NCBI GenBank assembly: GCA_963575745.1
Contig: CAUYUJ010000248.1
Span: forward strand, 496,001 to 560,000
Reading direction: 5' to 3'
Source: Prorocentrum cordatum
Lineage: Eukaryota
DNA length: 64,000 nucleotides
The translations under genes and the position numbers were made by a program. Each line of letters starts with the position of its first letter. The first letter of the stretch is position 1. Below the pieces are notes generated by a model. That model had not been told where the DNA came from and ran no database searches. It was given only the letters and a program-made list of their open reading frames with translations. Shown one piece after another: positions 9,777-63,974 of the stretch.

Positions 9777-12030
9777 TTTTTCGGTCTGCGGGGCGAGGGC
9801 GAACCTCTTCCGATAAAAGTTAAGCGGGCTACGCACAGCTCTAACTGGGGAGACAGGGCACAGGCGGGCGGGGCCTCAGGCGGCCGGAGAGGGCGGGGCC
9901 CAGGGCGCAGGCGGTGTCGAGGAGCTTGCACAGGAAAAGGAAGGCCTTGGACAGGAGCCGGAGGCGAAGATCCGGAGGCTGAGCGATGTGGTGTTGCCGT
10001 CAACGGCACTCCGTAAACACCAGCCTCAAGCGCTGCATAGAAGGACGTTGCACGCGACCAGGTCGACGTCCAGGGGGGGGAAGTCCACCGTGAAGGCGAT
10101 GGGCAACGTTGTGCCACCAGATGGTGTGGGGGAGGCCCAGGAGAAGAGGAGCACCACGAAGGTGATGCGCATCGTTGTGCCACGGGGTGGTCGGAAGCGG
10201 CCCGGGGTGGTAGTCCAATCCACGACCGGGAAGTAGCCAGCAAGAGGCGCGGCCAGAGACGAGGGCCGTCCACGTCCGACAGGATGTCGGTGGAGTGCAG
10301 GGAGGATACCTGACCTGCACAGTCAGCGCGCGAAGACGGGCGGGAGCCACACACGATGCGCTGACGCCCGCGTGGCCGGGGGCCGGGCCAGAGCCGCACA
10401 GCGCCGAGGCGAGCGGGGCCGCCGAGGCGGCAAGGCGCAGCGCCCAGCACCGGGCCGAAGCCGCGCAGCGCCGGGCGCCGCCGCCATGGGAGGGGGGGAA
10501 GCGAGCGGGGGGGGGCGAAGGGAACAGGGGGGAGAGAGGCCGGCATCCCACGCCAGCCGAAGTCGCGACAGCCCGCACCGTGGGCGCTCACGTGGGGGAC
10601 AGGGCCCCTAATGGGCACAGGTAGAACACAAGGTCCCATAGCAGGTAAAGACAGGGCGTGCCACGCCAGTCGTAGACGCTTCAGTCCGCATCGCAGGTGT
10701 TCACAGGGGGAACGACCCCCGATGGGCACAGGCGGGACACAAGGTCCCAGATCCTTCAGAGACGGGAGAGGGGGAAGGGCGGAGACGGAAAAGACGGGGA
10801 CCAGGTGGAGCGGCAAGCAGTCGTAGCCCGTGGAACGCGGGCGCCACAAGGGCAACGGGGTGCAGGTGGGGGGGCAGGGAAGGACACGCGGCCCAGGGCA
10901 ACGGGGTGCAGGTGGGGGGGAAAAGGGAGGACACACGGTCCCAAGTCAGGTGAAAAAGGGGGGATGGGGGCCAGGGGCACAGGTGGTGGGAGTGCGGAGA
11001 CGATTGCGTCGCGCTGCCATAGGGCGAGGGGGTCAGGTCGTCGGCTGGTCAGCGCCGCAGGCGCTTTTCAGTCCAGGCGTCGTGGTACCCAGGGTGCGCG
11101 CCTGGTCCTCTTCGCGCCCGCCACCCTTGGCGACCCCCCTTTTCCTCTGTACGTCCTGGCACAGCCTCTGCTCCCTATCCAAGTCCACGTAGACGCCAGC
11201 GCTGCGGGGCCACGCCGCCACGCGATGGTTGTTGGTGCTCATGTCATTCAGGAATTTGCCAATGATCCAATACACCGCCAGCGGCTCGGGTCGAAAGGGA
11301 CCTGGTCTTTGGATTTGCCTTTGCCCTGCTCCTTGCACATGTGCCTGCACCACGAATGCCAGGCTGCGTTGAAGTGGCACCCCCCTTTCCACCTGCAGCC
11401 TCTTCAGGTGTGTGACTGCTGTCTCGCGTGGGCGGCGCTGCCAGCCAACGCGGAAGATTGCCCGCGTCCGGCTGGTGTCGGGGCGGCGGCGATCGCCCCT
11501 GTGGTAAGAGCTGCGCGATTCTGGCTGGCGCCAGGGGGGGCTCTCTGCGCCCCTGCCACCGCCGTGGCCTCGGTCCCCGTTGCGCCCCCTGGGCGCAGGG
11601 GGCGCAAGGGAGGCACGGGCGCAAGGGGGCCTCAGGGGAGGCAAGGGAGGGAGGCAAGGGTGCCAGCGAGACGCAAGGAGGCAAGGGTGCAAGGGGACCT
11701 CTTCGTCGGAGTCGTGAGGAACCATCGCTGCTGGTCTAAAGGGTTCTGCTTCGCTTGGAAAGGTCTGCTGGCCGCCAGGGTTGCTCGGTGGGGCTTCGGG
11801 ACTCAGACATCGGAGGGCGCGAATGTCAGGGTTGCCAGCGAGTTGGCGCGGATGCTTTTTAGTCATGTTAGAATTGTGAGGATGCTGCTGCTGACACCGG
11901 GGGGCTGTCACCACGTCGTTGTCGTAGTTCTCGTCCTCCGACATTTCCACCGCCGATTCCTGACTGCCAGAACCGTGCGGAACGTCTCCGTTCCCTTCGC
12001 TGTGAGTCCGGATGGTCCGCTGTGAGTCCG

Positions 12031-12445
12031 GATGGTCGCCCGTCGTCGCCACGGGGCGTCGAGGTGGTCCGTGCTCAGGGCGGCCGTCGGGGAAGGGGCT
12101 GGGGCTCGAGACACTGCGATTTGCATGTGGCCTCGCGGGCCCCATTTCACCTTGGGAATTCGAATATATCGAAACCGCGTTCCATTCTGGTCTAACAGGC
12201 CCCATTTCAGCCGTGGCAGGATCCTCCGGACGGTCGTCTGTCGTCGTCACGGGGCGCCGAGGTGGCGCGTGCTCAGGGCGGTCGTCGAGGAAGGGGCCGG
12301 GGCTCGAGACACCGCGATTTGCATCTGGCCTAACGAGCCCCATTTCACCTTCGAGATTCGATAATATCGAAATCACGCCCCCTTTTGGCCTAACGGGCCC
12401 CATTTCAACAGTGGCAGGATCCTCCGGACGGTCGTCAGTCGCCCT
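12031..12445 (-). repeat. 198-bp (66-codon) direct repeat x2 plus a partial third copy
   Basis: GATGGTCGCCCGTCGTCGCCACGGGGCG at 12031 vs GACGGTCGTCTGTCGTCGTCACGGGGCG at 12229; DDRPEDPAT.EMGPVRP occurs twice in ORF 11033-13051. Confidence 0.85.
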
Positions 12446-12532
12446 GGTCACCACGGCTGGGCCCGCTTCGAAAGTCTGAGTTCCTGGCCCCGTGAAGGGA
12501 GAGGTAAAAGAAGGAGGAGGGGCGCCCTCCAA

Positions 12533-12859
12533 ATCCTGGAAGAGCATGCCGATGACCGCTATGATGACCAGACGAAAGTTGGCGATCTTAGCCGCCAGCT
12601 TCGACCGCCTCGGCGCGGCGACGCTGGCCGTCAGCACCTTCCAGTCGAAGTCGCCCGCCGAGGCTTCGGCGCCAGCAGACTGGTCCTGGAACAGCTCGCA
12701 GAGCGCACAGTAGGCCACGATTTGCCCCAAGCCTGCCGCGGGGACTTCGGAGATGGTGCTGAGGTCGCTCAGGATGTCCTTGAAGGCGAGGCCCTTGGAC
12801 CGCGACAGGAACCCCGGCAGCTTGCCATTAATTTCCGGGGCGAAGGGGCCCATAGTCGC
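12533..12859 (-). pseudogene. Fragment of dinoflagellate chlorophyll a/c light-harvesting complex (LHC) gene
   Basis: ATMG..APEINGKLPGFLS.SKGLAFKDI...SEVPAAGLGQIVAYCALCELFQDQSAG..SAGDFDWKVLT...KLAAKIANFRL.IIAVIGMLFQD. The helix-3 ExxNGR motif is decayed and the N-terminus is missing. Confidence 0.9.
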
Positions 12860-13970
12860 ACCGCGCGGATGCGGATGCGGGGGGAATGCGACCCACAAGG
12901 GCTGCCCCCGGTAGCCTTGGCACGGCTCCGAATGCCCTGGGAGGGGGGCCGGAAAGCCAGATCGGGAGGCGTTCTCCCCCGCCCCCCGCCGCCCCCACCG
13001 CCCCGCCCAGCGGAGGGAAGGGGGGGGGGGAGGAGGGCACCTCACTATCAAAATTTCCTAACCCCCCCGCCCTTCGCACAGCCGACGGTGTCTTGTGAAT
13101 CACACGACCTCTCGACATTCGAAACACCTGCCCGCGCGCGCTACCCTTCCCCCGCGTACACACATGCAACTACGTGCGCAAAATGCCCATCAATCACGCA
13201 CACACCACGCCAATCCGCACGCGCTAACATTTTTTCGGGGGTGGCTTCCCATCGCAAGGAGACAACTCGAGACATAGGACGGGTCGGGATGCGCACCGCA
13301 AACACATATCGTTGAATGGTTTCCAACGGCAGGGGAAAACAAATCATCTCCGACCCTCCCCGTGCCGGCGGTGGGAGGGGACAAGTCCCCTCGTTGGCAC
13401 TGTTCCCTCATGGTTCGAGACCCCCGCTAATGCGAGCAAATCAAGACTGCTCACCAGCACAGATGGCGGCCCAGAGGCGAGGGATGGCCACACGCCGCCA
13501 GACCCCGGATCGGGACAGAGACCCCCGTTCTTATATCCAAGTGCATTCCATCGCACACCCCCGCGCAGCTGCACGCCACAACTGAGGTGGGCTACCGCCG
13601 CAGGACCGGCAGAAGCCGCACACCGAGCCGGCAGGAAACGCCGCCGGCGCGCGGCGGCCAGGCGCGGGCCGGCGCTCACGCCAAGGCGGCGCCAGAGGGA
13701 TGACGCCCCCAGAAGGGGTCGCCATAACCGCCCGCCGGTCCGCCCAAGGCACGCGCTACCCCCCCGCCCCCCCGAAGGAGCACAGCCGACACAACAGGAT
13801 CCTACGACCACCCTGGGAGGCATCGCGACCCCTCCCACCACAGCCGTAGTAGGCACGGGGGGCACAGGCCTGGGACGAGGGGGCTGCTCGCACCCAGATT
13901 CCTGCGCGGGGTTGGCCGCGCTAGCCCGCTAATCATCAAGGGTGGCCCAGACGAAAAATGCCGCCCCCTG

Positions 13971-15226: not shown

Positions 15227-15248
15227 CTTGAGCCAAAATGGCTACGGA
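15227..15248 (-). other. Perfect dinoflagellate spliced leader
   Basis: Reverse complement reads TCCGTAGCCATTTTGGCTCAAG (22/22). Confidence 0.97.
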
Positions 15249-16671: not shown

Positions 16672-16693
16672 TCCGTAGCCACGTTGGCTCGAG
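16672..16693 (+). other. Degenerate SL relic
   Basis: TCCGTAGCCACGTTGGCTCGAG, 19/22. Confidence 0.85.
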
Positions 16694-22591: not shown

Positions 22592-22741
22592 GCCCGGAGG
22601 GGCCACATGCGACTTCGCACCTGCACCCCACGATGTCTGAGGGGGGGGGTAGGGTTCGCTGCGTTCGGGAGCTGCCGAACGAAGTGAGCCCCGCCTTCCT
22701 CCTCAGAACTCCCGGGTAGGGCCCGCGCGTGGCCCCCCAAG
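22592..22741 (+). other. GC-AG hairpin intron, homologous to the palindromic element at 34440
   Basis: Splicing gives ENAKQ|TAARI..CPAPSNKQCQADGGSCG in frame. Internal inverted repeat TCTGAGGGGG...CCTCCTCAGA; shares GGCCACATGCGA and GTGGCCCCC ends with the 34440 copy. Confidence 0.65.
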
Positions 22742-26060: not shown

Positions 26061-26870
26061 TTATTGGCCACCCCAAAACTATTGAGGTATTCAGAGTCTA
26101 CATACAGTTAGCATTTATGCATACATATATGTATGTATATAGTTATAGAGAGAGAAGGAGAGAAATACACGATTCCATATACACATATACATATATGCAC
26201 AGAGAAAGAGGCAGAGAGAGAGAGTGATATCTGAACTGCCCTTAGAGGTATCAAGACGTACTCACTATATACGTACACACATAGGTGAAGACGCATGAAC
26301 TTAATGTACACATGTATGTATGTATGTATGTATGTATGTATGTATGCATGCATGTATGGATGGATGTATGTATGTATGTATGTTTCTTTGTCGTTGTAGA
26401 GGAGGAGGTAGGTACAGAGAAAAAGGGAAGAGTGGCACAGATAATCAGATCGTTACGCATGTCAGAGAACTGTGCATCCAGTATTACTACATAAACATAA
26501 GCACTTGTGTATCGACCTATGCTTATTCAAATACATATATACAATATTGTAGACATATACACCAAGAGAGGAAGAGAGGAAGGCACCAGGTAGACTTAAG
26601 TGCTCAATGGGCATCCATACATTTGTGTACACAGAAAAACGGGCGTGACCGATAGACATATATTCATATTTACACATGTACCCGAGGCGATTATGTACAT
26701 ACATATATATGGTAGCCCCCCCCCACATGATCATACATATTTCTTTTTTTGCTACTCCTCTTCCTCGCGCGCCCTGGGGGGGGAGGGCCTGGGGCTTCCT
26801 GGGGCTTCCTGAGGCCTCCTGGCCTTCCCGAGTCTTCCGAAACGCTTCCTGGGGCTTCCCGAAGCCTCCT

Positions 26871-27590
26871 GGGGCTGCCGAAACATTGCCCTGGTGAAAA
26901 ACGCTGTGTTTCCCTGATATTCCTGACCTTCCCAGGGATTACCCCTGAGAAAACGCTGTGTTTCCCTGATATTCCTGATATTCCTGACATTTCCAGAGAC
27001 TACCCAGGCGCCGAGGCCACCTGGGGCTGCCGAAACATTGCCCTGGTGAAAAACGCTGTGTTTTCCTGATGTTCCTGACCTTCCCAGGGATTACCCCTGA
27101 GAAAACGCTGTGTTTCCCTGATATTCCTGCTATTCCTGACATTTCCAGAGACTACCCAGGCGCCGAGGCCTCCTGGGGCTGCCGAAACATTGCCGTGGTG
27201 AAAAACGCTGTGTTTTCCTGATATTCCTGACCGTCCCAGGGATTACCCCTGAGAAAACGCTGTGTTTTCCTGATATCCCTGATATTCCTGACATTTTCAG
27301 AGACTACCGTGAGCCTGCAGGGTAGTCTCTAGAAATGTCAGGCATATCAGGAATACCAGGAAACACACAGCGTTTTCTCAGGGGTAATCCCTGGGAAGGT
27401 CAGGAATATCAGGAAAACACAACGTTTTCCACCAGGGCAATGTTTCGGCAGCCCCAGGAGGCCTCGGCGCCTGGGTAGTCTCTGGAAATGTCAGGAATAT
27501 CAGGAATATCAGGAAAACGCAGCGTTTTCTCAGGGGTAATCCCTGGGAAGGTCAGGAATATCAGGAAAACACAGCGTTTTTCACCAGGGC
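26871..27590. repeat. 152-bp tandem repeat folded into a large inverted repeat centred at ~27315
   Basis: Three + units at 26871, 27023, 27175, then ~1.8 inverted units from 27321. Confidence 0.9.
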
Positions 27591-27714
27591 CATCTCTGGG
27601 AAGATCTTGGAAATCTGGAAAATCTGGTAAACGGTATTTTTTCAAGAGCAGGAGGATGATAATCAAATTGTGTAGATTCAAAAGGGCAGCGTTGGCCGTC
27701 GGCTGCCCCCCGTC

Positions 27715-29510
27715 AGTTGTGAACGCAGCTCCCCAATCAGTTCTGCGAGCAGCCTCCTGCTACGAAACACTACTCGCAAAACTAGCTGTGAACGCCGCTC
27801 CACACCTAGTTTTGCGAGTGATGTCTTCCTCCTCACCCTCGTCATGCTCCTCACCCTCCTCTTCTTCCTCCTCCTACTCCTCCTGCTCCTCCCCATCCTT
27901 CCTCCTCCTTCTTTTCTTCACTCAACCCCACCTCTCCGCTTCATGGCGTCACTCACAAATCTAGTTGCGAACGCAGCTCCGCAACCAGTTTTGCGAGCAG
28001 CCTCCTGATAAGAGACATTACTCGCAAATCTAAATGTGAACGCCGCTCCACACCTAGTTTTGTGAGTAAGGTGTTGCTCCTCACCTTCGTCATGCTCCTC
28101 ACCCTCCTCTTCTTCCTCCTCCTACTCCTCCTGCTCCTCCCCCCTTCCTCCTCCTTCGTTTCTTCACTCTACCCCCACCTCCGCTTCGTGGCGTCACTCG
28201 CAAATCTAGTTATGAACGCAGCTCCACAACCAGTTTTGCGAGCAGCCTCCTGCTGCGAAACATTACTCGCAAAACTAGCTGTGAACGCAGCTCCACACCT
28301 AGTTTTGTGAGTAAGGTGTTGTTCCTCACCTTCGTCATGCTCCTCACCCTCCCCTTCTTCCTCCTCCTACTCCTCCTGCTCCTCCCCCCTCCTCCTTCTT
28401 TTCTTCACTTTACCCCCACCTCCCCGTTTCGTGGCGTCACTCGCAAATCTAGTTGTGAACGCAGCTCCCCAATCAGTTCTGCGCGCAGCCTCCTGCTACG
28501 AAACATTACTCGCAAAACTAGCTGTGAACGCCGCTCCACACCTAGTTTTGTGAGTAAGGTGTTGCTCCTCACCTTCGTCATGCTCTTCACCCTCCTCTTC
28601 TTCCTCCTCCGACTCCTGCTGCTCCTCCCCCCTCCTCCTTCTTTTCTTCACTTTACCCCCACCTCTCCGCTTCGTGGCGTCACTCACAAATCTAGTTGTG
28701 AACGCAGCTCCCCAATCAGTTCTGCGAGCAGCCTCCTGCTACGAAACACTACTCGCAAAACTAGCTGTGAACGCCGCTCCACACCTAGTTTTGTGAGTGA
28801 TGTCTTCCTCCTCACCTTCGTCATGCTCCTCACGTTCCTCTTTTTCCTCCTCCTACTCCTCCTGCTCCTCCCCATCCTTCCTCCTCCTTCTTTTCTTCAC
28901 TCAACCCCACCTCTCCGCTTCATGGTGTCACTCACAAATCTAGTTGCGAACGCAGCTCCGCAACCAGTTTTGCGAGCCGCCTCTTGATAAGAGACATTAC
29001 TCGCAAAACTAAATGTGAACGCCGCTCCACACCTAGTTTTGTGAGTAAGGTGTTGCTCCTCACCTTCGTCATGCTCCTCACCCTCCTCTTCTTCCTCCTC
29101 CTACTCCTCCTGCTCCTCCCCCCTTCCTCCTCCTTCGTTTCTTCACTCTACCCCCACCTCTCCGCTTCGTGGCGTCACTCGCAAATCTAGTTATGAACGC
29201 AGCTCCACAACCAGTTTTGTGAGCAGCCTCCTGCTACGAAACATTACTCGCAAAACTAGCTGTGAACGCCGCTCCACACCTAGTTTTGTGAGTAAGGTGT
29301 TGCTCCTCACCTTCGTCGTGCTCCTCGCCCTCCTCTTATTCCTCCTCCTACTCCTCCTGCTGCTACGGCTCCTGATCACTCAGCCCCTCCTCTCCACTTC
29401 GAGGCGTTACCCTCCAATCTAATTGCGAATGCAACTCCACAACAAACCTTGCGAGCAACCTTCCGCTACGAATCATTATTCGCAAAACTTGTTGTGAACG
29501 CCGCTCCACA
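27715..29510. repeat. ~245-bp satellite x7.5 with ~980-bp higher-order repeat
   Basis: Monomers start near 27715, 27963, 28208, 28451, 28693, 28942, 29189, 29422. Diagnostic variants pair monomers 1/5, 2/6, 3/7. Confidence 0.9.
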
Positions 29511-29599
29511 GCTAGGAAGAGGCGGTGGAAAATGGGGGAGGATGTTGCTCAACTATGGCTGGTGCCACTGGAGCTCGGCATTCACCAGATGACGCGGAG

Positions 29600-34439: not shown

Positions 34440-34560
34440 GCCACATGCGAATCTTACCCCTACCCCCCACGATTTCTGAGGGGGAGGGTGGGGTCCACTT
34501 CGTTCGAGAGCTCCCGAGCGAAGTGAACCCCACCCTCCCCCTCAGAAATCGTGGGGGGTA
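34440..34560. mobile_element. Palindromic (hairpin) element, main part; right end displaced to 46361-46388
   Basis: 34461-34560 is a 100-bp palindrome with 3 mismatches. The outer left arm GGCCACATGCGAATCTTACCCC pairs with GTGGTAGGGTTCGCATGTGGCC at 46361. 17-bp direct repeat CCAGGGAATGCGTCGAG at 34423 and 46389. Confidence 0.85.
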
Positions 34561-35049: not shown

Positions 35050-37083
35050 TCACCTCAACATCTGCTTGACGGTTGGTGGAAGTATGATCTGCGAAACCTC
35101 TCCGACGCCAGCCCTCCTATAAACGCATGGTTCTATGATGTTGTCAGACAACATGAGGGCTGGGCTATCGGCAACTATACACTTGGCAACATTACCTGAA
35201 GTTTCAAGGTGGGTCCACTGTGATACACCCGTCATGCAAACCCCATGCACTGCACAGTGGAAAATCACCTGCCCGAAAGAAAGAATGCCGCCACGCCAAA
35301 AAGCTACAACATCATGCACTTTAACTCTCTTGTGCTTGATGTACATCTTACTTGACGTCAACACTTCGGTATGGAGATCCCTACCAAGAGTGACCAACAC
35401 TGCCTCCTGTAGGTTCTTGGGGGCGGGCCTTGGATTGCACAGGCCGACACCGCCTATGGGAGTGTGGAGGTCCCACAGGTGTTGCAGCGTTACTTCCTCC
35501 ATGAGGCCGCGGCTGTATCCTGTGAGATTCTGCCGCGGCGTCGCAAACCTCTTGAGCACCCTGTGCTTCATCTCCATGAGGAAGCACGATGGCAAAATGC
35601 CATGCTTTTCCAACTGGAGGCCAAGATGCAGCAGAAAATGAAACTTTGGAAGCCATAGCTCGCCACTGTAACAAACGAGATGCAACTTTAGATGCTTGGC
35701 AACAGTATCTTGGAGCTCTCGTGGGGCGACTTTCCCAGAATTCACAATTGTAAGTAAATCCAGCGCATCTGCCAAAGCAATCCCACATATGCACTCCTGC
35801 TGGCAATGGCCTGACGGCCATACGACATCCAGCAGGTATTTACGCAGCACTGGGGCACAACTCAACATTGACGATGCATCGCCCGATGGTGAATGATCTG
35901 CGTGGGAAGCACACACATCGCTTCCCTTTGCATAACAACCAGGCCAGGACCACAATTGTAAGTATTCGTCAAACTCTTTGCCACCGAGTCCAAACGGGGT
36001 CAACCTTGAAAGCAGCTCCGTGACCTCCTTGGGGAAAGCTCCACCAATGAAATACGAATGCATCCAATCCCATGCCCATGTTTTCGATAAGTCGATCCCC
36101 ACATCAGGGCTCTGCAACAGCCCTGTCGGTATGAAGTTGTACCCAAACAACGTTTCAAGTTTACCCAACTTTGTTTTCTCATTGGCATCGTGCAAGTCCT
36201 TCAGTCGCTTCTGAATGTCCATCAACCCGTCATGAGAATGAAACTCGAATTTCCTCACATCCACCTCAGTCGATGGCACGGGATAGTTATTGGGGCACGG
36301 TAGCAACGACGATTTGAAATTGACAACGTTTCTGCATATGCCACAGATTTTGTGGCCTGTTGCGCCCATTGCCCCAGTGCAATACTTGTGCGCTCTTTCG
36401 TCTTGGACCAAAATGAAAATCTCTCTATACACAACCCGAGGAGCACTCTCCCCAGGTAGCTGGAGAAGGGCGCCTTTGCGGATGTCGCTCGTGCCTTTCG
36501 TGAAACATTCAACTGCATATTTGAACAACTCGCTCATGCCGCCACGAAGGCATTTCACTGTGTCCGAAGTTGGTGCCGTGAGCGTATTCCACGCTAATTC
36601 GTCGGAAAGGACTGGGTATTGCAGATCGGCCCAGCTCCAATAGACAGCCTGCATTGAGCGTGTGTTGTGGTCACTGAGAGCATTTCCAGGGACCACTTCG
36701 TCTGAGTACATGATAACCCTCATGCGGTTGGACGAGCGGTCCAACGATGACTTCACTAACTCAGCAAATCTCGAACATTCCTTGGACGCGACCTCTAGCC
36801 AGCCAAGTGGGTGCTGGAACGTGATGTCGACGTTCACTGGTTTCCCCCTTTTGTTTGCGCCGTCGAAATGCCTGGTCTGGAGAAGAGGGCCGTGGGTAGT
36901 CTTTTGAAATGCAATCTTTTGCCGATGTCTCCTCTGGGTCGCAGTCGAAAAATGTTCGGGGAGAGGCTGATCTCGCAACTGTTTCAAAAGAGCGCACAGC
37001 GCCGAGGATGTGACATGGCTGGTCCTTCCCAGATCGACCAGTCGGCGCCTTTTCGCCTCTGGGGCGGAGGCCGTGGCAGACAT
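35050..37083 (-). CDS. CMC/EnSpm-type DDE transposase, intact and intronless (~677 aa)
   Basis: Motifs in family order: IMYSDEVVPGN..AVYWSW; LVQDERAH; CGIC; DWMHSYFIGG; PKFHFLLH; CFLMEMKHRVLK. N-terminal KRRR is NLS-like. Confidence 0.85.
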   Translation of the reverse strand: MSATASAPEAKRRRLVDLGRTSHVTSSALCALLKQLRDQPLPEHFSTATQRRHRQKIAFQKTTHGPLLQTRHFDGANKRGKPVNVDITFQHPLGWLEVASKECSRFAELVKSSLDRSSNRMRVIMYSDEVVPGNALSDHNTRSMQAVYWSWADLQYPVLSDELAWNTLTAPTSDTVKCLRGGMSELFKYAVECFTKGTSDIRKGALLQLPGESAPRVVYREIFILVQDERAHKYCTGAMGATGHKICGICRNVVNFKSSLLPCPNNYPVPSTEVDVRKFEFHSHDGLMDIQKRLKDLHDANEKTKLGKLETLFGYNFIPTGLLQSPDVGIDLSKTWAWDWMHSYFIGGAFPKEVTELLSRLTPFGLGGKEFDEYLQLWSWPGCYAKGSDVCASHADHSPSGDASSMLSCAPVLRKYLLDVVWPSGHCQQECICGIALADALDLLTIVNSGKVAPRELQDTVAKHLKLHLVCYSGELWLPKFHFLLHLGLQLEKHGILPSCFLMEMKHRVLKRFATPRQNLTGYSRGLMEEVTLQHLWDLHTPIGGVGLCNPRPAPKNLQEAVLVTLGRDLHTEVLTSSKMYIKHKRVKVHDVVAFWRGGILSFGQVIFHCAVHGVCMTGVSQWTHLETSGNVAKCIVADSPALMLSDNIIEPCVYRRAGVGEVSQIILPPTVKQMLR

Positions 37084-37096
37084 GCTCCGCAAACAG

Positions 37097-37118
37097 CTCG
37101 AGCCTAAATGGCAACTGT
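37097..37118 (-). other. Relict SL just upstream of the transposase ATG
   Basis: ACAGTTGCCATTTAGGCTCGAG, 18/22, ending 13 nt before the ATG at 37083. Confidence 0.7.
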
Positions 37119-37888
37119 TGCGATGATGATTGCAGGGCCGCAGTTGCGACCTCGATGGCGATGATGGCGGTGCGTTGCAAGTAATGTTATGACGACGATG
37201 ACGCTAACAAGTGTTAATGATACGTACTTGCAGTAATGACGGTGACAATGTACATATCGGTGGATCGCAATCTAAGGACGGTAGCGTGGATTCTTAGGGG
37301 GGGTGGGTGCGATGTTTGCGCTGCTCTTGGATTGGGAAAGTGTCGAAAAAGGCCTGCCCTCCGAAAGCCGCATTCGCCGCGGTGCCGCCCAACCTCGGGG
37401 CGCGGGGGGCCGCGGGTAACGGTGCCACGGACGCTTGCCAGTTATCCAAATCTTTTTTTCAAGCTAAAGCTCGAAACCTACTGATGTCATCTGAGGCGCG
37501 AAACAAATCGCTCAAGAGACTGCACGCTCGCGAGAAGGACTGTCGACTGCACTCCCCGATGCTGTCAGACAGTGCCAAGGCGCGGGGGAGTGGGGGAGAG
37601 TGAGCACGACCGCCACCGCGACCGCGACCACGACGTCGACGACGACGACGATAATGACGACGACGACGACGACCCCTAAGCCCAGAGGAGAGCAGCAGCA
37701 GTAGCAGCAGGAAGAAGATGCAGACAGGGCTCTGGAACCCACATTTGATGCGGAGACGCGGCGAGGGGAGGGGGAGGGGAGAGGGGGAGAAATAGAGACA
37801 GAGCGAGAGAGGGGGGCGCCGCTACGAGCTGCAAGTGTCCATGCGTCTTGCACGCATGATTGCACCCTATACTCCGTGCCGTGCTACT

Positions 37889-39893
37889 CTATTTCGCGCC
37901 GTGCTTTGCGTAACCTGCTCTTGCGGCCTTGTAGGCTGCTGCTGCTGCTTGCTTCTGCCCCTCAGCGCAGAGCCCCGCATCAACGGCGAGCTTCCTCCCC
38001 CCAGCGGCTGCCCTCGTAGTGAATGCCCTTCCGTCCTGCCCTTGCACTCGGACGGCTTCAGGAGCGGTTTGAAGTCGAGCTTGTCCACACCTCCCTCCCC
38101 CTGCATTTGGCGTAGGAAGCGCATGACAGGGCCAGGGGGGGTGAGGGAGAGGAGTTTCGTAAGAGCGCACCCCTTCCCCCCTGGGAGACGGAGGACAGGG
38201 ATACCGAGGCAGGGGACGAGCAAGGCGAGGCATCAACAACCTTCGAAAACAACCGAGCTAAACTTCAAGAGGCGAGACAGAGAGAGCGAAGCAAATGTAC
38301 TGCAAACCCACTCTTAAGTGCTCGTTTCTCACGTGCTCATCCTCCGATGTCCTCATTGTGGCTTCCTGTTGTTTCGTGTTCGTCTCATGTTTCCTCCGAG
38401 CCTCGTTCTCCTCCTCTTCCCCCGCCCCTCCCTGCCTCACCCGCCTCTCCATCACTCCCTCCCTCCATCACTCCCTCCATCACTCCCTTCCACTATCCTC
38501 GCTATCGTCCATGGCCCCACTGCCCCAAACCTTTGACGATCTTGATCGCGCTGCCCTTCGGCGCGGCGTCGGCGGCCTTGGCCTTGGCCTTGGCCTTCGC
38601 GGTCCCCTTGCTGCCCATGCCCTTCGCCTTGCCCTTCGCCTTGGCCTTAGCCTTGCTCTTCGCCCTCGCGCCCGCCTCGGCCGAGGCTTCGAGCATCTTC
38701 CGCTCGAACTCTTCTATGGTGTCGCCAGCGCCAGCGCCTCTGTCAGCCGCCAGGGGCTGCTGGGCCGCGCCAGGCAAGTCCGCGCCAGGCGAGCCCACAA
38801 GAGGCGAGTCCCAGCCAGGGCCACTGAGAGGGCTGCTCGCCGTAGAAACAGCAGCGGCACCCATCGGACTACCAGAACCGTCTGCGACAGCGGAGGGCCC
38901 ATGTGGCCCGACGGCGGCGCCACCCCTGGGAGGGTTGTAGATCATCCCTGGGATGACGTCCTGGCTCTGCTGCTGCTGCCGCTGCTGCATCTCGTACGCC
39001 ATCTGCATCATCTGCATCATCTGCGGGTTCATCGGGAAGCCAAAGTTGGGGAACTGGTGCTGGGGGGACTGGGTGGCCAACTGCATCTGCTGCTGCGGCG
39101 GCGGCGCTTGCGGCTTAGCCTCGGCCTTTAGGGCGCGGGCACTGCCCCTCACCCAGACGGTGTTGTAGACTTGCTCCAGCCCAGGCAACGTCGGCGTAAC
39201 TGGTTGATCGTCCCCATACGCATGCTTGAACTCCTGCGGGCTGAACTGGTCGGGCGACTCGGGATACCTTTTGCGGTGGGTGAACGGGCACCTGCCGCGC
39301 TGAGCGTCCAAGGCTTTGACGGCCGTTTGGAACTTCCTGGCCAAGGTCTGCTTGTAGGTCGCGCTCAGCACGTCGTTGTCCAGGTCGGGGCTGGCAACGA
39401 TCAGGATTGCCGCAGCCCTCTTCAGCAGTTTGTTCCCTGGGCATGTGATGCCCATGGAGTGCATCCTCATGGACATGACCCTGACCTTGGGGTCGATGCC
39501 GTGCTCGGGCGATCCGATGAAATCGAAGTCCGACTGAGTGAAGAAGTTCTGCAAGAAGTCGTGGGCCTGCTGAGGCCTGCACCCCGCGCCCTCGCCGTTG
39601 TGGAGCCCTGCGGCGTTGCGCATGGCGTTCTCGTTGAGTGCGTTGGCCAGCTGTATCTTCTGCTCTGGAGAGAACGCCGAAACAGCAACTTGTCGGGATA
39701 CCTGCGTGGCCACATCGTGGTCTACCCCCTCCGAGTTGAAGAACTCCGTCGCCAACATGTTCGCCTGGCTGGTCTTGAGCGCCTCGATGGGTAGACCGCT
39801 CGCCGCCTGAGCGGTCACGTACTGGATGCGCTGCTGCAGGATGGCGCACAAGCGCTGGGCATGGAACGACATTGCTGTCGCCATAGCTGGCAC
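37889..39893 (-). CDS. Transposon accessory protein (~520 aa) with Q/M-rich and KA-rich tracts; probable intron ~38.1-38.5 kb and a frameshift in the last exon
   Basis: ORF 38502-39893 with strong GC3 bias; AAAG|GT donor near 38531; downstream VDKLDFKPLLKPSECKGRTEG / AFTTRAAAGGRKLAVDAG...AYKAARAGYAKHGAK*. Confidence 0.7.
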
Positions 39894-40429
39894 GAGGTGG
39901 CAACGTAACCTAGTGTCGGAAGCCTCTCAAAAAGTAAAATCTGATGCGGCTAAAACGAGCTATGAGGTGGCAATGGCAGCGGGATGGTCGACAAGTGTTG
40001 CCTCGGAGCGCCCCCACTGCGCGATAGTGAACGCCCGTGCCTTGACCTGGGGGGCGTGCTCCCCTCACCCCCCGCACCAAGTGCCAGCCTGAGGCGAAGC
40101 GGGAGGGCGCGCGAGAGGCTGGAGGACGTAGAGAGAATGAGTGCAAACCGAAGCAGGAGGGGCTAGTGGGCAGGGGGAGGTCACACCTTACAACGATGAG
40201 CGGCAACGCCACCTGAACGCAAAGTGATCGCGGCATGGGATGATCAAAACACTCCGACCTGAGTCGCAACGATTTCTCTCTGCTCGCCTGAGCGCGCTGT
40301 GAGCTGTTCAGGCCTGTCGCCTGAACTCCCCAGGGGACTCTCGAGCGCTCGCTCCAACGTCTCCTGAGCAGTTGGAGCCGCACAAGATGAAAACATAATG
40401 GGTTCCAACTGCGTTTGAATAACATCCGC

Positions 40430-40870: not shown

Positions 40871-41572
40871 CTAATCCGAGATCGGCTGATTGCGAAACTT
40901 AGTGTAAACGTCCTCTAGCACCTCAGCCAAAGTATTGACATGAGCCTGCACGGCCTCCACATCATAAGGGTCTGGAAACGGAACGGGAAAGGACTTCTGG
41001 ACCCACTTGCCCTTCTTTGTGTCCCAGTAGCTGGTAGTGACAGAGTGCCGAGATGCCAACCATGAGACGTGTTCCTGAGAGATGGTCGACAGCCACTTCT
41101 TCTCTGGCTGGTGGGCTGGCTCTTTCTGAAGAAGGGCGATGCTTTCGGCACTGAATTCAATCCACAGCATGCCTCGGTCCGCAGCGGTCGAGAGGACGTT
41201 CACCGAATGACTCCCGCCATCGACTGTCTGGACTTCCAACGTCACGTAGGCTGGAATCTCGTCCTTGAGATCCTTCTTGGCGCGCTTCACTGCTGGTGCG
41301 TCGCCGTCCTGGTCCAACAACTGCTGGGGAGCTGGCTCAACTACCTGCTTCATCAGATCATGTCATTTTGTGTTCCGAGCTTCAATTAGGTAATCGACCA
41401 TCTTGAATGAGCGGCCAAGGAGTTTGGCAAGCTTCGCATCGCGCCGATCGATCGGGACGAACGATTGGTCCGATGTAGGCTCATGGACAGGCTTGGTCGC
41501 CCAAGAATTGGACGGTGACGGTACCGTGCCCGACTTGCATACCAACGTCCAGCCATGACAGAGCGAAACCAT
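40871..41572 (-). pseudogene. Transposon accessory ORF (233 codons) interrupted by one in-frame TGA
   Basis: ORFs 41363-41572 and 40871-41353 share a frame: ..ARNTK*HDLMKQVV.. Confidence 0.7.
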
Positions 41573-42621: not shown

Positions 42622-45600
42622 TCAACGCGACTTACGAGACTTCGAGGGCCCAGAAGCGTCTGGCGCGGCCCTCTTCTTGGGGCTCGGGCTAGCCTTGGAA
42701 TTTTTCTTGGGCGATTTGATCGTTGCAATCCTCGGGTCGGCTGTTTTCTGGAACAGCTCCTGGCCCTTCGAAAGCTTCTTAGTGTTAGAGATGACAGGCA
42801 GCCTAAGAGTGCAATTGAGATAACAATCCTCACGCTGACAACGCACATCTATGTACTTGGGGGCCATGTTAGCCAGCGACGCGTCCTGCGTCCCAGGGAC
42901 GCAGTGGTACGGCACAATGAATGTATCGGCACTGGCATCCGATCCCTCTTGCGGGAGATCGCACTTAGGCACTAGGTACAGAAAGTGGGGGTTGCTATAC
43001 CACGTGGGGGCGCCAGGGACAAGAATAGCGTTCGTAGGCACGGAGGTGGAAAACCCTACGGTACTGCACAAAGGCACGAGCACGAGCTCTCCTGGTTTGT
43101 ACGCCTTGTCGGCGATCACCGACTTCCCCGTCTTGGCGACGACGATGGTGACGCACACGTCGCCCATGTGCTTCGCGAAGAGGTCGGCGATAGCAATGCG
43201 CACCTGGGGGCGGCGCGGGGGTCGCGGGACGTCGGGGGAGGCCGAGGACAATGGTCAGAAACAACGTTAACAGCGTGCGGAGACCATCGACTAAATGGGG
43301 TGCGAAGGAGATATGGGGATACCCACAGCAAAACCATAACAAAATGGCCGACCTAGACCCCCTCATCCCCGCATTCTCCCCCCCCCCCCCCCCAGCCCTC
43401 CCATTTAAGCTGGGGATGTTCGACGTTTTCGTTATCAGAGGGCTCCCTTCACCAACGGATGACACACGTTGAAACGCTAGCGAAAACTAACATCAGTATA
43501 ACTTATGTTTTACCCTGCACGCCCCTCTCCCCCTCCATATTTCCTCATCTTCCAACCTCCTACTCCTCAGCATCATCTTTCCGCCTCCTCCTCCCCATCC
43601 GCCCTCCCCCCCCTCCGTAGCTATCTTGGCCCAAGCCGCGGCGGCGCAAGAGAGAGAGAGCGCGCCTGCGACTTCAGCATCTCGGAGCCGAGGTCCTTGT
43701 GCCTCATGGGGTTCTGCTGGGCGTTCGCGGGGTCCACCTTAATCTCGAACTTCTCGGACTCCACGTGCACCTATCGGCAGGGGCGGGCGCAGGGGCGACC
43801 ACGGACCAAATCTTTTGACACAGCTGGTTCAAAAGATTTGGTCGTCGTCGTCGTCGTCGTCATCGTCGTCGTCGACGTCGTCGTCGTCGTCGCCCCGCAA
43901 TCCACCAAATCGGCCGTTGCCCCAGCAGGTGCACCACTGCGCCATAGGATGCGCCATCAGCTCCGCCATAGGATGCGCCTGACACCCCCCAGTCCACCTA
44001 ATCGCTAGCCGACTCATCGGTGTTTCGAATGGGGTGGAGGGAGATGCGAGAAGCACGGCACCTTATACTCATCCATGAGCTTGCTCGTGGTGATCGTGAT
44101 GGGCTTGGCCTTCCCCTTCCCCTTGCCCTTGCACTTGCCCTTCGGGGCATCGGTGTCCTTGGAAAGCTTGACCTCGCAGCCCTTGATCTCGACGATCTTG
44201 TAGATGCCGTCGTCGCCCGACTGCGCCTTCACCAAGACGCCGACGTCGAAGCCGAGGTCGGTAATCACCTTGCCGTCGACGACCATCTGCCCACCAGCAG
44301 ACTGGACGTACTCGACGAAGCCGCCCGAAGGGGCAGCAGCGTTGGTAGTGTCCTTTTCCGTGGTCCAGGGGGGCGTCACATTGGCAGCAAGTGGGCACGC
44401 GATGCACAGCTCCTCAATGAACTTGGCCTTGATCTCGTCCAGGGTTCCGTATACCTTCCGCCCCTTTGCCTTTTTGGCCATAACCATCATCACGCAACGA
44501 ACTTGAAAATCGCCTGCAAGTTTGGCGGCTGCCACGGCCGCTAAACCAGTGATCGTCTTCATGAACGCGTCCACCTCCCCAAAGACGACGTCGCACGCCA
44601 TGACCTGCACGTGCTTCTTGCCCGTGTGCTGCAGCTCGGCGAGGTCGCTGCCAGTAATCATGTTAGACACTCCGTCTTTGCAAAACGTATCTGGTGCAAC
44701 GAGGCACGCCTTCAAGCATGCTACGATCCACCGTGGGGCGCAGGCCAGCTGGGCGCCCGCCAGCGCCGTGAAGGTCTTCGTCGAGACGTCCTTCCTCTCG
44801 TCGCCGATGCACTTGGAGTAGTTGACGATCTCAGTCAGGAAAGGGCCGTCCCCCCCCCGCTCCACTTCTCGACGAAGCTGCACATACTCCTCACGTGCCC
44901 GCGAAGGGCGGGCTTCGACTTCTCAAGTCGGGCAGTGATGCCATCCCAGTCCGCGTCCTTCTTCATCGCCAGGTTTGTCGAAGCCCACTGGGGTCGGTGG
45001 CAAGTGAAACGCAAAAACAAATATCTTTTTTGGGTGCACCCAAAAAAAGATATTTGTTTTTGCATTTCGGATGCCACCAAGGACCTTGTGGATACGCTGC
45101 AACGTTTGCATCTTGGACTCGTGGCGGTACGAAGCGTGCGTCTCGTTGAACGCCTCCTGCAACAGAGATGCTAAGCCCTCAAACTTCTCCTTCACTTCCC
45201 ACTTGATCACGAGGAAGCGCATCCCCTGGGTCATCGGGATGCTGTAGGACGACGCCTTGCCCAGAACCAAATCTTTAGAAATCGTGCCGTCGGACATGCA
45301 GATCTCAGGATTGATGCCCTTGGCACCGTACATCGCACACCTCACGGTCGCAACGGTGTGGGACGCGGCGACGGTCAAGTATTTTAAGTCCGAGTCGGTG
45401 AACGGCACTAGGTAGCCACCACTGCGCTCCCACAAATCCTTATTGAATGTCCATGCCTCCATGCCCTTATCACCAGGGGCCCTCTCGAAACACGTCGCCT
45501 GCCTGCACTCTTCTGGGTCGAAACCTGCGTTGAGCAACTTGTCCAGTAATTCGTGCACGTCTGCCACTTCTAATCCCAAGCCCCAGCGGTTGCTATTGTC

Positions 45601-45768
45601 CGTCCCACAGAACTGCGCGGGCAACTGCTGAAAATACGCCAACCCATGTTCAAGCAGCAGGTTGCAAATCTTCCGTACCTCAGCTTTGATTTGGTTTTGC
45701 ATTCCATTTTCTCCAGCAGTGCCAGAAAATCTGTCGATGATCGGCTTGATGGTTGGCTCTACTTTATC
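42622..45768 (-). CDS. Multi-exon gene: ParB/Srx-like N-terminal domain and degenerate SET-like C-terminal domain
   Basis: Exons 45768-45085, 44987-44062 (frameshift in a G9 run ~44855), 43770-43666 and 43203-42622 splice in frame (GT-AG, GT-AG, GC-AG). Motifs SNRWGLG..VHELL..GF..YLTVAASHT; GKSVIADKAYKPGELVL..ANM..PVISNTKKLSKGQEL. A further 5' exon is likely (TAG|GAT at 45769). Confidence 0.7.
43614..43635 (+). other. Degenerate SL, antisense within intron 43204-43665
   Basis: TCCGTAGCTATCTTGGCCCAAG, 19/22, preceded by a C/CCT-rich tract. Confidence 0.8.
44988..45084 (-). other. 97-bp palindromic GT-AG intron
   Basis: GGTGGCA...GCAAAAACAAATATCTTTTTTGGGTGCACCCAAAAAAAGATATTTGTTTTTGC...TGCCACC; splicing gives RIHK|WASTN in frame. 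Confidence 0.85.
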
Positions 45769-63952: not shown

Positions 63953-63974
63953 TCCGTAGCCATTTTGGCTCAAG
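63953..63974 (+). other. Perfect dinoflagellate spliced leader followed directly by ATG
   Basis: TCCGTAGCCATTTTGGCTCAAG (22/22), then ATGCCT. Confidence 0.97.

Follow-up and report, generated by a model that had tools for sequence, protein, structure and literature searches.

What does the spliced gene on the minus strand at 42622-45768 of this stretch encode, and does it belong to a transposon? The stretch is a 64,000-nucleotide (nt) window of the dinoflagellate Prorocentrum cordatum (contig CAUYUJ010000248.1 of assembly GCA_963575745.1, positions 496,001 to 560,000 of the forward strand), and an initial annotation, made from its letters, had placed here a four-exon gene carried by a transposon, with a product joining a ParB/sulfiredoxin (Srx)-like domain to a SET-like domain. 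We found that the gene is a genuine spliced member of a large, divergent family without a Pfam match, and structure modelling showed a predicted ParB-cytidine triphosphatase (CTPase)/Srx fold over its N-terminal ~200 residues and a predicted SET/PR fold over its C-terminal ~160 residues. On balance we favour the reading that it is a spliced nuclear gene of a ParB-fold plus SET-like family and likely encodes a nuclear, nucleotide-regulated DNA or chromatin adaptor, a function that we infer.

Exon structure and the deposited gene models

Open frames, translations and splice dinucleotides gave the following features, in the order of transcription:

45085-45768, minus strand: exon 1, with the predicted ParB/Srx-fold domain as residues 1-206 from the ATG at 45702 (translation, profile alignment)
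44988-45084, minus strand: intron 1, 97 nt, GT-AG, nearly all one hairpin, introner-like
44868-45077, minus strand: alternative intron of the deposited models, 210 nt, GT-AG, which removes 45 conserved residues and avoids the break at the G9 run
44062-44987, minus strand: exon 2, encoding a conserved, WSGG-containing linker, a helical region and a small stretch rich in beta structure
44850-44858, minus strand: G9 homopolymer, a one-base frame break within the conserved [WFY][SAG]GG-x-D/N motif
43771-44061, minus strand: intron 2, 291 nt, GT-AG, with its junction peptide in CAK0789509.1 and CAK0794634.1
43666-43770, minus strand: exon 3, 35 residues, lineage-specific
43204-43665, minus strand: intron 3, 462 nt, GC-AG, with its junction in CAK0794634.1
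42622-43203, minus strand: exon 4, predicted SET-fold domain and basic tail, with the TGA stop at 42622-42624
42715-43197, minus strand: predicted SET-fold domain, residues 3-163 of the exon 4 product
42622-42714, minus strand: basic tail, Lys/Pro/Ser-rich, with two SPKK motifs, then TGA

The spliced reading comprises 743 residues, one of them an X, from the first in-frame ATG of exon 1 (45702), or 765 residues from the start of the open frame, against roughly 760 first proposed. The exons and motifs of the initial annotation stood, all on the minus strand, but its strict reading frame did not, as the G9 run shifts the frame by one base in exon 2. At the 5' end, an AG|G acceptor (45770-45769) marks where the open frame of exon 1 begins, and the alignment to the family profile covered 45765-45085 (positions 12-233 of the profile hidden Markov model, HMM), that is, from 21 codons upstream of the ATG. 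Since homology extends upstream of ATG 45702 as far as this acceptor, a short 5' exon carrying the true start is probably missing from the exon list; ~11 positions of the family profile, the start included, are missing from the 5' end of the gene reading.

Two deposited P. cordatum models bear on this structure, namely CAK0789509.1 for this locus (446 amino acids), to part of which the exon 1 product is 100% identical, and CAK0794634.1 for a paralogue (622 amino acids) that has 28 differences from this locus over 625 aligned positions, two in-frame indels included. Both models begin at residue 81, omitting the first 80, and both use 45077-44868 as their first intron; joining 45078 to 44867 reproduced CAK0789509.1 exactly (432/432 residues), and this model also reads through intron 3. 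Of the three junctions first proposed, 44062/43770 and 43666/43203 recurred in the paralogue model, whereas 45085/44987 was present in neither deposited model, yet is the one favoured by the family evidence that follows.

Local searches were run against 160 proteins, and every count takes in the query itself. The 45 residues skipped by the deposited models matched 47 proteins at the expected position (expectation value (E) down to 8e-11), and the complete exon 1 product, its first 80 residues included, matched 123. The exon 2 products P0004 and P0005 matched 127 and 47 proteins, respectively, and the exon 3 product matched, besides itself, only CAK0789509.1 and CAK0794634.1. Relatives have ~40 more residues than CAK0794634.1 between the two blocks on either side of the deposited junction. 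Gene models scored as follows against a profile built from 31 full-length relatives:

Four-exon arrangement with X at the break: 607.8 bits, one alignment (HMM 31-745)
Four-exon arrangement from residue 81: 524.6 bits, one piece
Deposited-like arrangement plus exon 4: 452.0 bits, two pieces, 44 profile positions missing

With the same start, the skipped 45-residue segment was thus worth ~73 bits (524.6 versus 452.0), and the gene reading matched the family profile far beyond chance (E 4.2e-186). The profile scores and the conservation of the skipped residues favour junction 45085/44987, and with it the four-exon structure, over the deposited annotation, so that family comparison appears to correct two deposited gene models.

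A large family with divergent members

An exhaustive search with CAK0794634.1 as the query returned 469 representatives at E<=0.001, 151 at <=1e-10 and 17 at <=1e-30, and full-length members measured 720-820 residues. Named gene models among 20 representative clusters and the gene's own cluster numbered 15, all from P. cordatum, the other entries being contigs of 2-6.7 kb; within this species the family diverges down to ~30% identity, and two of the models share one contig and have consecutive accession numbers. Automatic UniRef names of family members conflict ('FACT complex subunit', 'RelA/SpoT domain', 'START domain'), and Pfam scans of this gene's product and of 80 relatives detected no FACT, RelA/SpoT or START domain. 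At the level of listings and abstracts, searches of the literature found no description of this family or of a ParB plus SET fusion.

The N-terminal domain

An AlphaFold2 model of the N-terminal 206 residues, built on an 80-sequence alignment, reached a predicted local distance difference test (pLDDT) score of 95.0 and a predicted template modelling score (pTM) of 0.90. We compared it exhaustively with 48,161 PDB representatives (VIA), and the top eight were all of the ParB/Srx fold (Z scores 6.8-4.7; next row Z 3.6), as follows:

pNOB8 ParB-N: Z 6.8, root-mean-square deviation (rmsd) 3.7, 118 residues aligned
PadC: Z 6.7
SerK: Z 5.8
Arabidopsis Srx: Z 5.7
KorB: Z 5.5
Human Srx: Z 5.1
SbnI: Z 5.0
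Atu1540: Z 4.7

A separate second look was headed by Myxococcus xanthus ParB with CTPgammaS (Z 7.1, rmsd 3.1, 96 aligned) and Bacillus subtilis ParB (Z 7.0), followed by PadC, Caulobacter ParB, Noc, KorB, Srx and SbnI; proteins of these kinds made up all of the 15 entries (17 chains) listed with Z of at least 5, after which Z dropped to 2.3. The top rows from a viral structure library were DndB-like, ParB and GmrSD N-domains. The structural comparison thus bore out the ParB/Srx resemblance claimed for this end of the protein. The check by structure model and Foldseek that had been proposed for the spliced protein gave matches at E<=0.001 for the SET-like domain and none for the N-terminal domain, whose fold was recovered by the exhaustive structural search.

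The family signature of this domain consists of HPxNR, DVH, E73, FN, S-H-T, N186, Q199 and H205, with R39 kept in 72/73 and H115 in 79/80 sequences. S114-H115-T116 (S 67/80, H 79/80, T 69/80) stands at the start of the helix after the third strand, and the model has a helix inserted at residues 77-93. A homodimer prediction for this domain, run without an alignment and with the partner fold uncertain, scored 0.00, which speaks neither for nor against self-dimerisation.

The C-terminal domain, the tail and the middle region

A model of the C-terminal 193 residues had pLDDT 86.3, with the last 40 residues at 53-62. Foldseek placed SETD8 first (E 4.4e-4), and its eight matches at E<=0.001 were all SETD8; the exhaustive structural search gave Z up to 9.6, with 54 chains at Z of at least 5, and 48 of the 50 rows listed were SET or PR by title. 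A SET-like domain without the canonical NHSC, as originally described, is therefore what the model shows. Conservation within the domain is high (N112 38/38, W100 37/38, N140 37/38), and the invariant Asn is followed by Met or Cys. The tail beyond it is basic and carries the two SPKK motifs, and relatives have similar basic tails. For the middle region, a stored ESM Atlas model of the relative P0013 was poor (pLDDT 0.35), with structural neighbours below threshold; rows of small barrels gave a faint lead towards a possible Tudor/SH3-like barrel at residues 465-543.

Proposed function

The arginine P-motif of ParB is replaced in this family, as it is in the non-clamp proteins Srx, SerK and SbnI, and the ParB-like domain would bind nucleotide and act as a switch or regulatory module rather than as a canonical ParB CTPase. 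In the manner of inactive PR domains, the SET-like domain may serve as a peptide- or lysine-binding module that is non-catalytic or highly atypical, and the protein would be nuclear, binding DNA or chromatin through its basic tail. Production of the full-length protein from this copy would depend on what the G9 run represents: a mistake of the assembly, a recent mutation or a break that is bypassed.

Several results count against an adaptor of this kind, and some of them against the gene reading beneath it. The reading frame of this copy is broken at G9, and ATG 45702 is not the start of homology, so that the start codon is not fixed. Sequence comparison gave no link to ParB, Srx or SET: the five exon products drew no Pfam family at E<=1, each family hit in a scan of 80 relatives at E<=0.1 occurred in at most two of them (ParBc was absent), and sequence and profile searches of the PDB returned chance-level rows only. 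Foldseek against the PDB found nothing for the N-domain at E<=0.001 (best E 0.7, with sulfiredoxin and ParB leading the weak rows). The structural-search tool rates Z of 5-7 as 'middling', and the case for the N-domain fold accordingly rests on the exclusiveness of the top rows and not on the score. The arginine P-motif of ParB (GxxRxxA, 'GERR') was not found at the equivalent helix start, a position equated by secondary-structure order, where S-H-T stands instead, and the catalytic Cys of Srx (GGCHR) was not conserved there in the consensus of 80 relatives. At the other end, NH[SCAT]C occurred in 0/39 relatives; EL..DY occurred by pattern in 2/39, out of register, the columns after G-x-E-L being V/F/L/I. 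With the catalytic motifs of ParB, Srx and SET absent, no known activity can be transferred, and function, localisation and nucleotide binding are all inferred. Finally, the fold assignments span both ends and leave a middle third of ~300 residues outside them.

The G9 run and the state of this copy

The explanation that best withstands the evidence, after the adaptor reading, is that the copy is dead: the G9 break would be real, this locus and probably its 95%-identical paralogue would be pseudogenes, and the deposited 446-residue model would be a prediction artefact around the break. We regard this as a possibility to be taken seriously, although we lean against it. The run, which had been suspected from the start, does coincide with a -1 break in the assembly inside exon 2 (44850-44858). 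With an X at G9 the family profile aligns straight through, and from the two frames it follows that a run one base longer would read as the family does. The break falls within the WSGG-x-DG motif of the family, and this placement speaks for a dead copy, as [WFY][SAG]GG followed by D, N or K is kept in 96/150 representatives. A homopolymer miscall is less likely in an assembly of Illumina and PacBio reads than in a long-read-only one. Both deposited models carry the same work-around peptide, from which the paralogue probably shares the break; in addition, the window copy has H in the SET-like domain where 37/38 relatives have W, and CAK0794634.1 has L. The genome assembly is described as an Illumina plus PacBio hybrid made with MaSuRCA (PMC10666404), which favours a real break.

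Other observations speak against simple decay. Leaving the single base aside, the reading is open across all 743 codons. At highly conserved positions the copy deviates from the consensus in 2/24 and 2/15 cases (medians of relatives 0.083 and 0.074), no more than is typical of relatives, and the two paralogous copies, despite their 28 differences, two in-frame indels among them, have no stop in either. This copy is otherwise not decayed. There are also transcript-derived fragments 95-99% identical to it (P0008 136/143, P0009 78/81, P0010 94/95), which again speak against a pseudogene. These fragments, together with P0011, P0182 and P0183, come from EukProt, where they are labelled as Pyramimonas sp. 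CCMP1952, a green alga; fragments of this set reach 99-100% identity with family members of P. cordatum, which suggests that the Pyramimonas sp. CCMP1952 transcriptome is cross-contaminated.

The transposon question

The initial annotation had the gene carried by a transposon, and three open reading frames (ORFs) lie downstream of it on the same strand:

40871-41362, minus strand: 163-codon ORF, no Pfam domain
38502-39926, minus strand: 474-codon ORF, no Pfam domain
35050-37203, minus strand: 717-codon ORF, no Pfam or PDB sequence match

The 717-codon ORF may be what had been taken for a transposase. As transposon cargo, the gene would be an accessory of a large DNA transposon that includes these ORFs, the 717-codon one among them, and would aid targeting or escape from silencing; we think this unlikely, and an element targeting or anti-silencing role is speculation. 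Such an origin would suit a family that is multi-copy and very divergent in one genome (15 named models, down to ~30% identity, two of them adjacent by accession on one contig), the prokaryotic ParB-fold genes often found on mobile elements (PMC12704722), and the 717-codon ORF, which likewise has divergent relatives (four, 24-53% identity, on short contigs). Terminal inverted or long direct repeats bracketing the gene block were not found in the window by self-BLAST or a repeat finder, which returned low-complexity arrays and small palindromes only, and Pfam scans at E<=0.5 detected neither a transposase nor an integrase nor a reverse transcriptase among the neighbouring ORFs. The gene also has three spliceosomal introns, a further point against cargo. 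That all four ORFs lie on one strand fits an element, but dinoflagellate genomes normally have their genes in one-strand blocks. With no bracketing repeats and no Pfam domain in the neighbours, carriage by a transposon is unproven.

Weaker proposals

We consider it very improbable that the protein combines two active enzymes, a ParB/Srx-like phosphotransferase of the Srx/SerK/SbnI kind and a divergent S-adenosylmethionine-dependent SET-like methyltransferase acting on a basic chromatin protein: polar residues are kept in the N-domain (H35, N38, R39, H50, E73, N87, S114-H115-T116, N186) and in the SET-like domain (D107, N112, N140, E149), a conservation typical of pockets and not of plain scaffolds, and SerK, Srx and SbnI rank high in the structural comparison, but Ser occupies the position of the Srx catalytic Cys, the SET motifs NHxC and EL..DY are absent or out of register in the 39 relatives, as given above, and neither SET nor ParB was matched by a profile at the sequence level.

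A bolder form of the adaptor reading, which we offer as a long shot, would make the protein a nuclear descendant of the ParB nucleotide-switch fold, expanded in dinoflagellates, with a catalytically silent SET-like reader and an SPKK tail; gated by nucleotide, it would clamp DNA or chromatin or serve there as an adaptor, in the nucleosome-poor, 5-hydroxymethyluracil-rich chromosomes of these organisms; the G9 run, here and in the paralogue, would then perhaps be a slippage-prone switch for the full-length protein and not a lesion.

For dinoflagellates, the family offers a testable candidate for a lineage-specific chromatin or mobile-element factor. The ParB fold gains a new architecture, in a family whose hundreds of divergent members escape Pfam and are wrongly modelled in the deposited annotation.

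Other features of the window

Introner elements, described as introns with inverted repeats at both ends, are enriched in P. cordatum (PMC10666404). Intron 1 fits this description, having inverted repeats at both of its ends: the arms of its hairpin (~39 bp) fill 83/97 nt, and the self-palindrome at 44996-45078 is 88% matched. The folding energy of the intron as RNA was -52.3 kcal/mol (z -12.65), and 0/200 shuffles were as good. A 100-nt palindrome (94%) lies at 34461-34560, with a related copy (84%) 12 kb off at 22626-22711, and may be a small foldback element; on comparison, the intron 1 palindrome was rejected as a relative of it, the two being unrelated.

Intron 3 contains a spliced-leader-like 21-mer (43615-43635, plus strand) that runs antisense to the gene and has 3 mismatches, where 100 shuffles gave an expectation of 0. 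The dinoflagellate spliced-leader core had two perfect matches and one 3-mismatch match elsewhere, at 15227-15247 (minus strand), 63954-63974 (plus strand) and 16673-16693 (plus strand). These last three matches could be leader genes or else relics of leaders on retroposed genes.

The window also contains a tandem array at 27715-29515 (~245-nt units, 7 copies, up to 97% alike), adjoined by inverted repeats of 150-300 nt at 26859-27622 (94-96% identity). A weak match to chlorophyll a/b-binding protein at 11033-13057 (minus strand; E 8.7e-5, just above the Pfam cut-off) fits a photosynthetic host.

Comparison with known systems

ParB-fold proteins are described as modules that bind nucleoside triphosphates and are joined to other domains, or as factors regulating enzymes that modify DNA (PMC12704722, PMC13229309), and the term 'SET domain' occurs nowhere in the main text of the ParB-fold survey (PMC12704722). 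A functional parallel may lie in the phage ParB-like activators of thymidine dioxygenases, in which the ParB fold serves not segregation but the regulation of an activity directed at DNA or chromatin (PMC13229309). The analogy is possible for an organism rich in 5-hydroxymethyluracil, but is a lead only, as no dioxygenase gene or domain was found here.

Sulfiredoxin, SerK and SbnI match the N-domain in fold (Z 5.0-5.8) and likewise lack the arginine pair of ParB. In contrast to Srx, the family has, by motif position, an apparent Ser at the place of the catalytic Cys, and its domain, at twice the size of Srx, forms part of a multidomain protein of 750 residues.

The SET/PR domains of SETD8, ATXR5, MLL1, NSD2 and PRDM2/3/4/5/9/11/12 match the C-terminal domain in fold over ~100-127 residues. 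As in SET/PR, a hydrophobic G-x-L-x-L-V-P-L strand pair and a late G-x-E-L are in their usual places. Unlike SET, the family lacks NHxC, EL..DY and a Pfam SET match (none in six full-length relatives at E<=0.5), and has a signature of its own, (F/Y)W, D, N-(M/C) and P-x-L-x-N-(T/S)-(K/R).

Sulfiredoxin aside, hardly any eukaryotic nuclear protein is known to have the ParB-CTPase fold. With the ParB-CTPase fold proteins themselves (ParB of M. xanthus, B. subtilis and C. crescentus, Noc, KorB, PadC and pNOB8 ParB-N) the modelled N-domain shares the same alpha/beta fold over ~96-118 residues (Z 5.5-7.1) and, to judge from the secondary structure of the model, the same order of elements: strand, Pro/Asn/Arg loop, helix, strand, strand, helix. 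The family differs from them in having no Pfam ParBc match, S-H-T in place of GxxR(R) and the extra helix at 77-93, and in being eukaryotic, spliced and fused to a SET-like domain. Both folds are known already; the family, its signature and the fusion turned up neither in the literature searches nor in the text of the ParB-fold survey.

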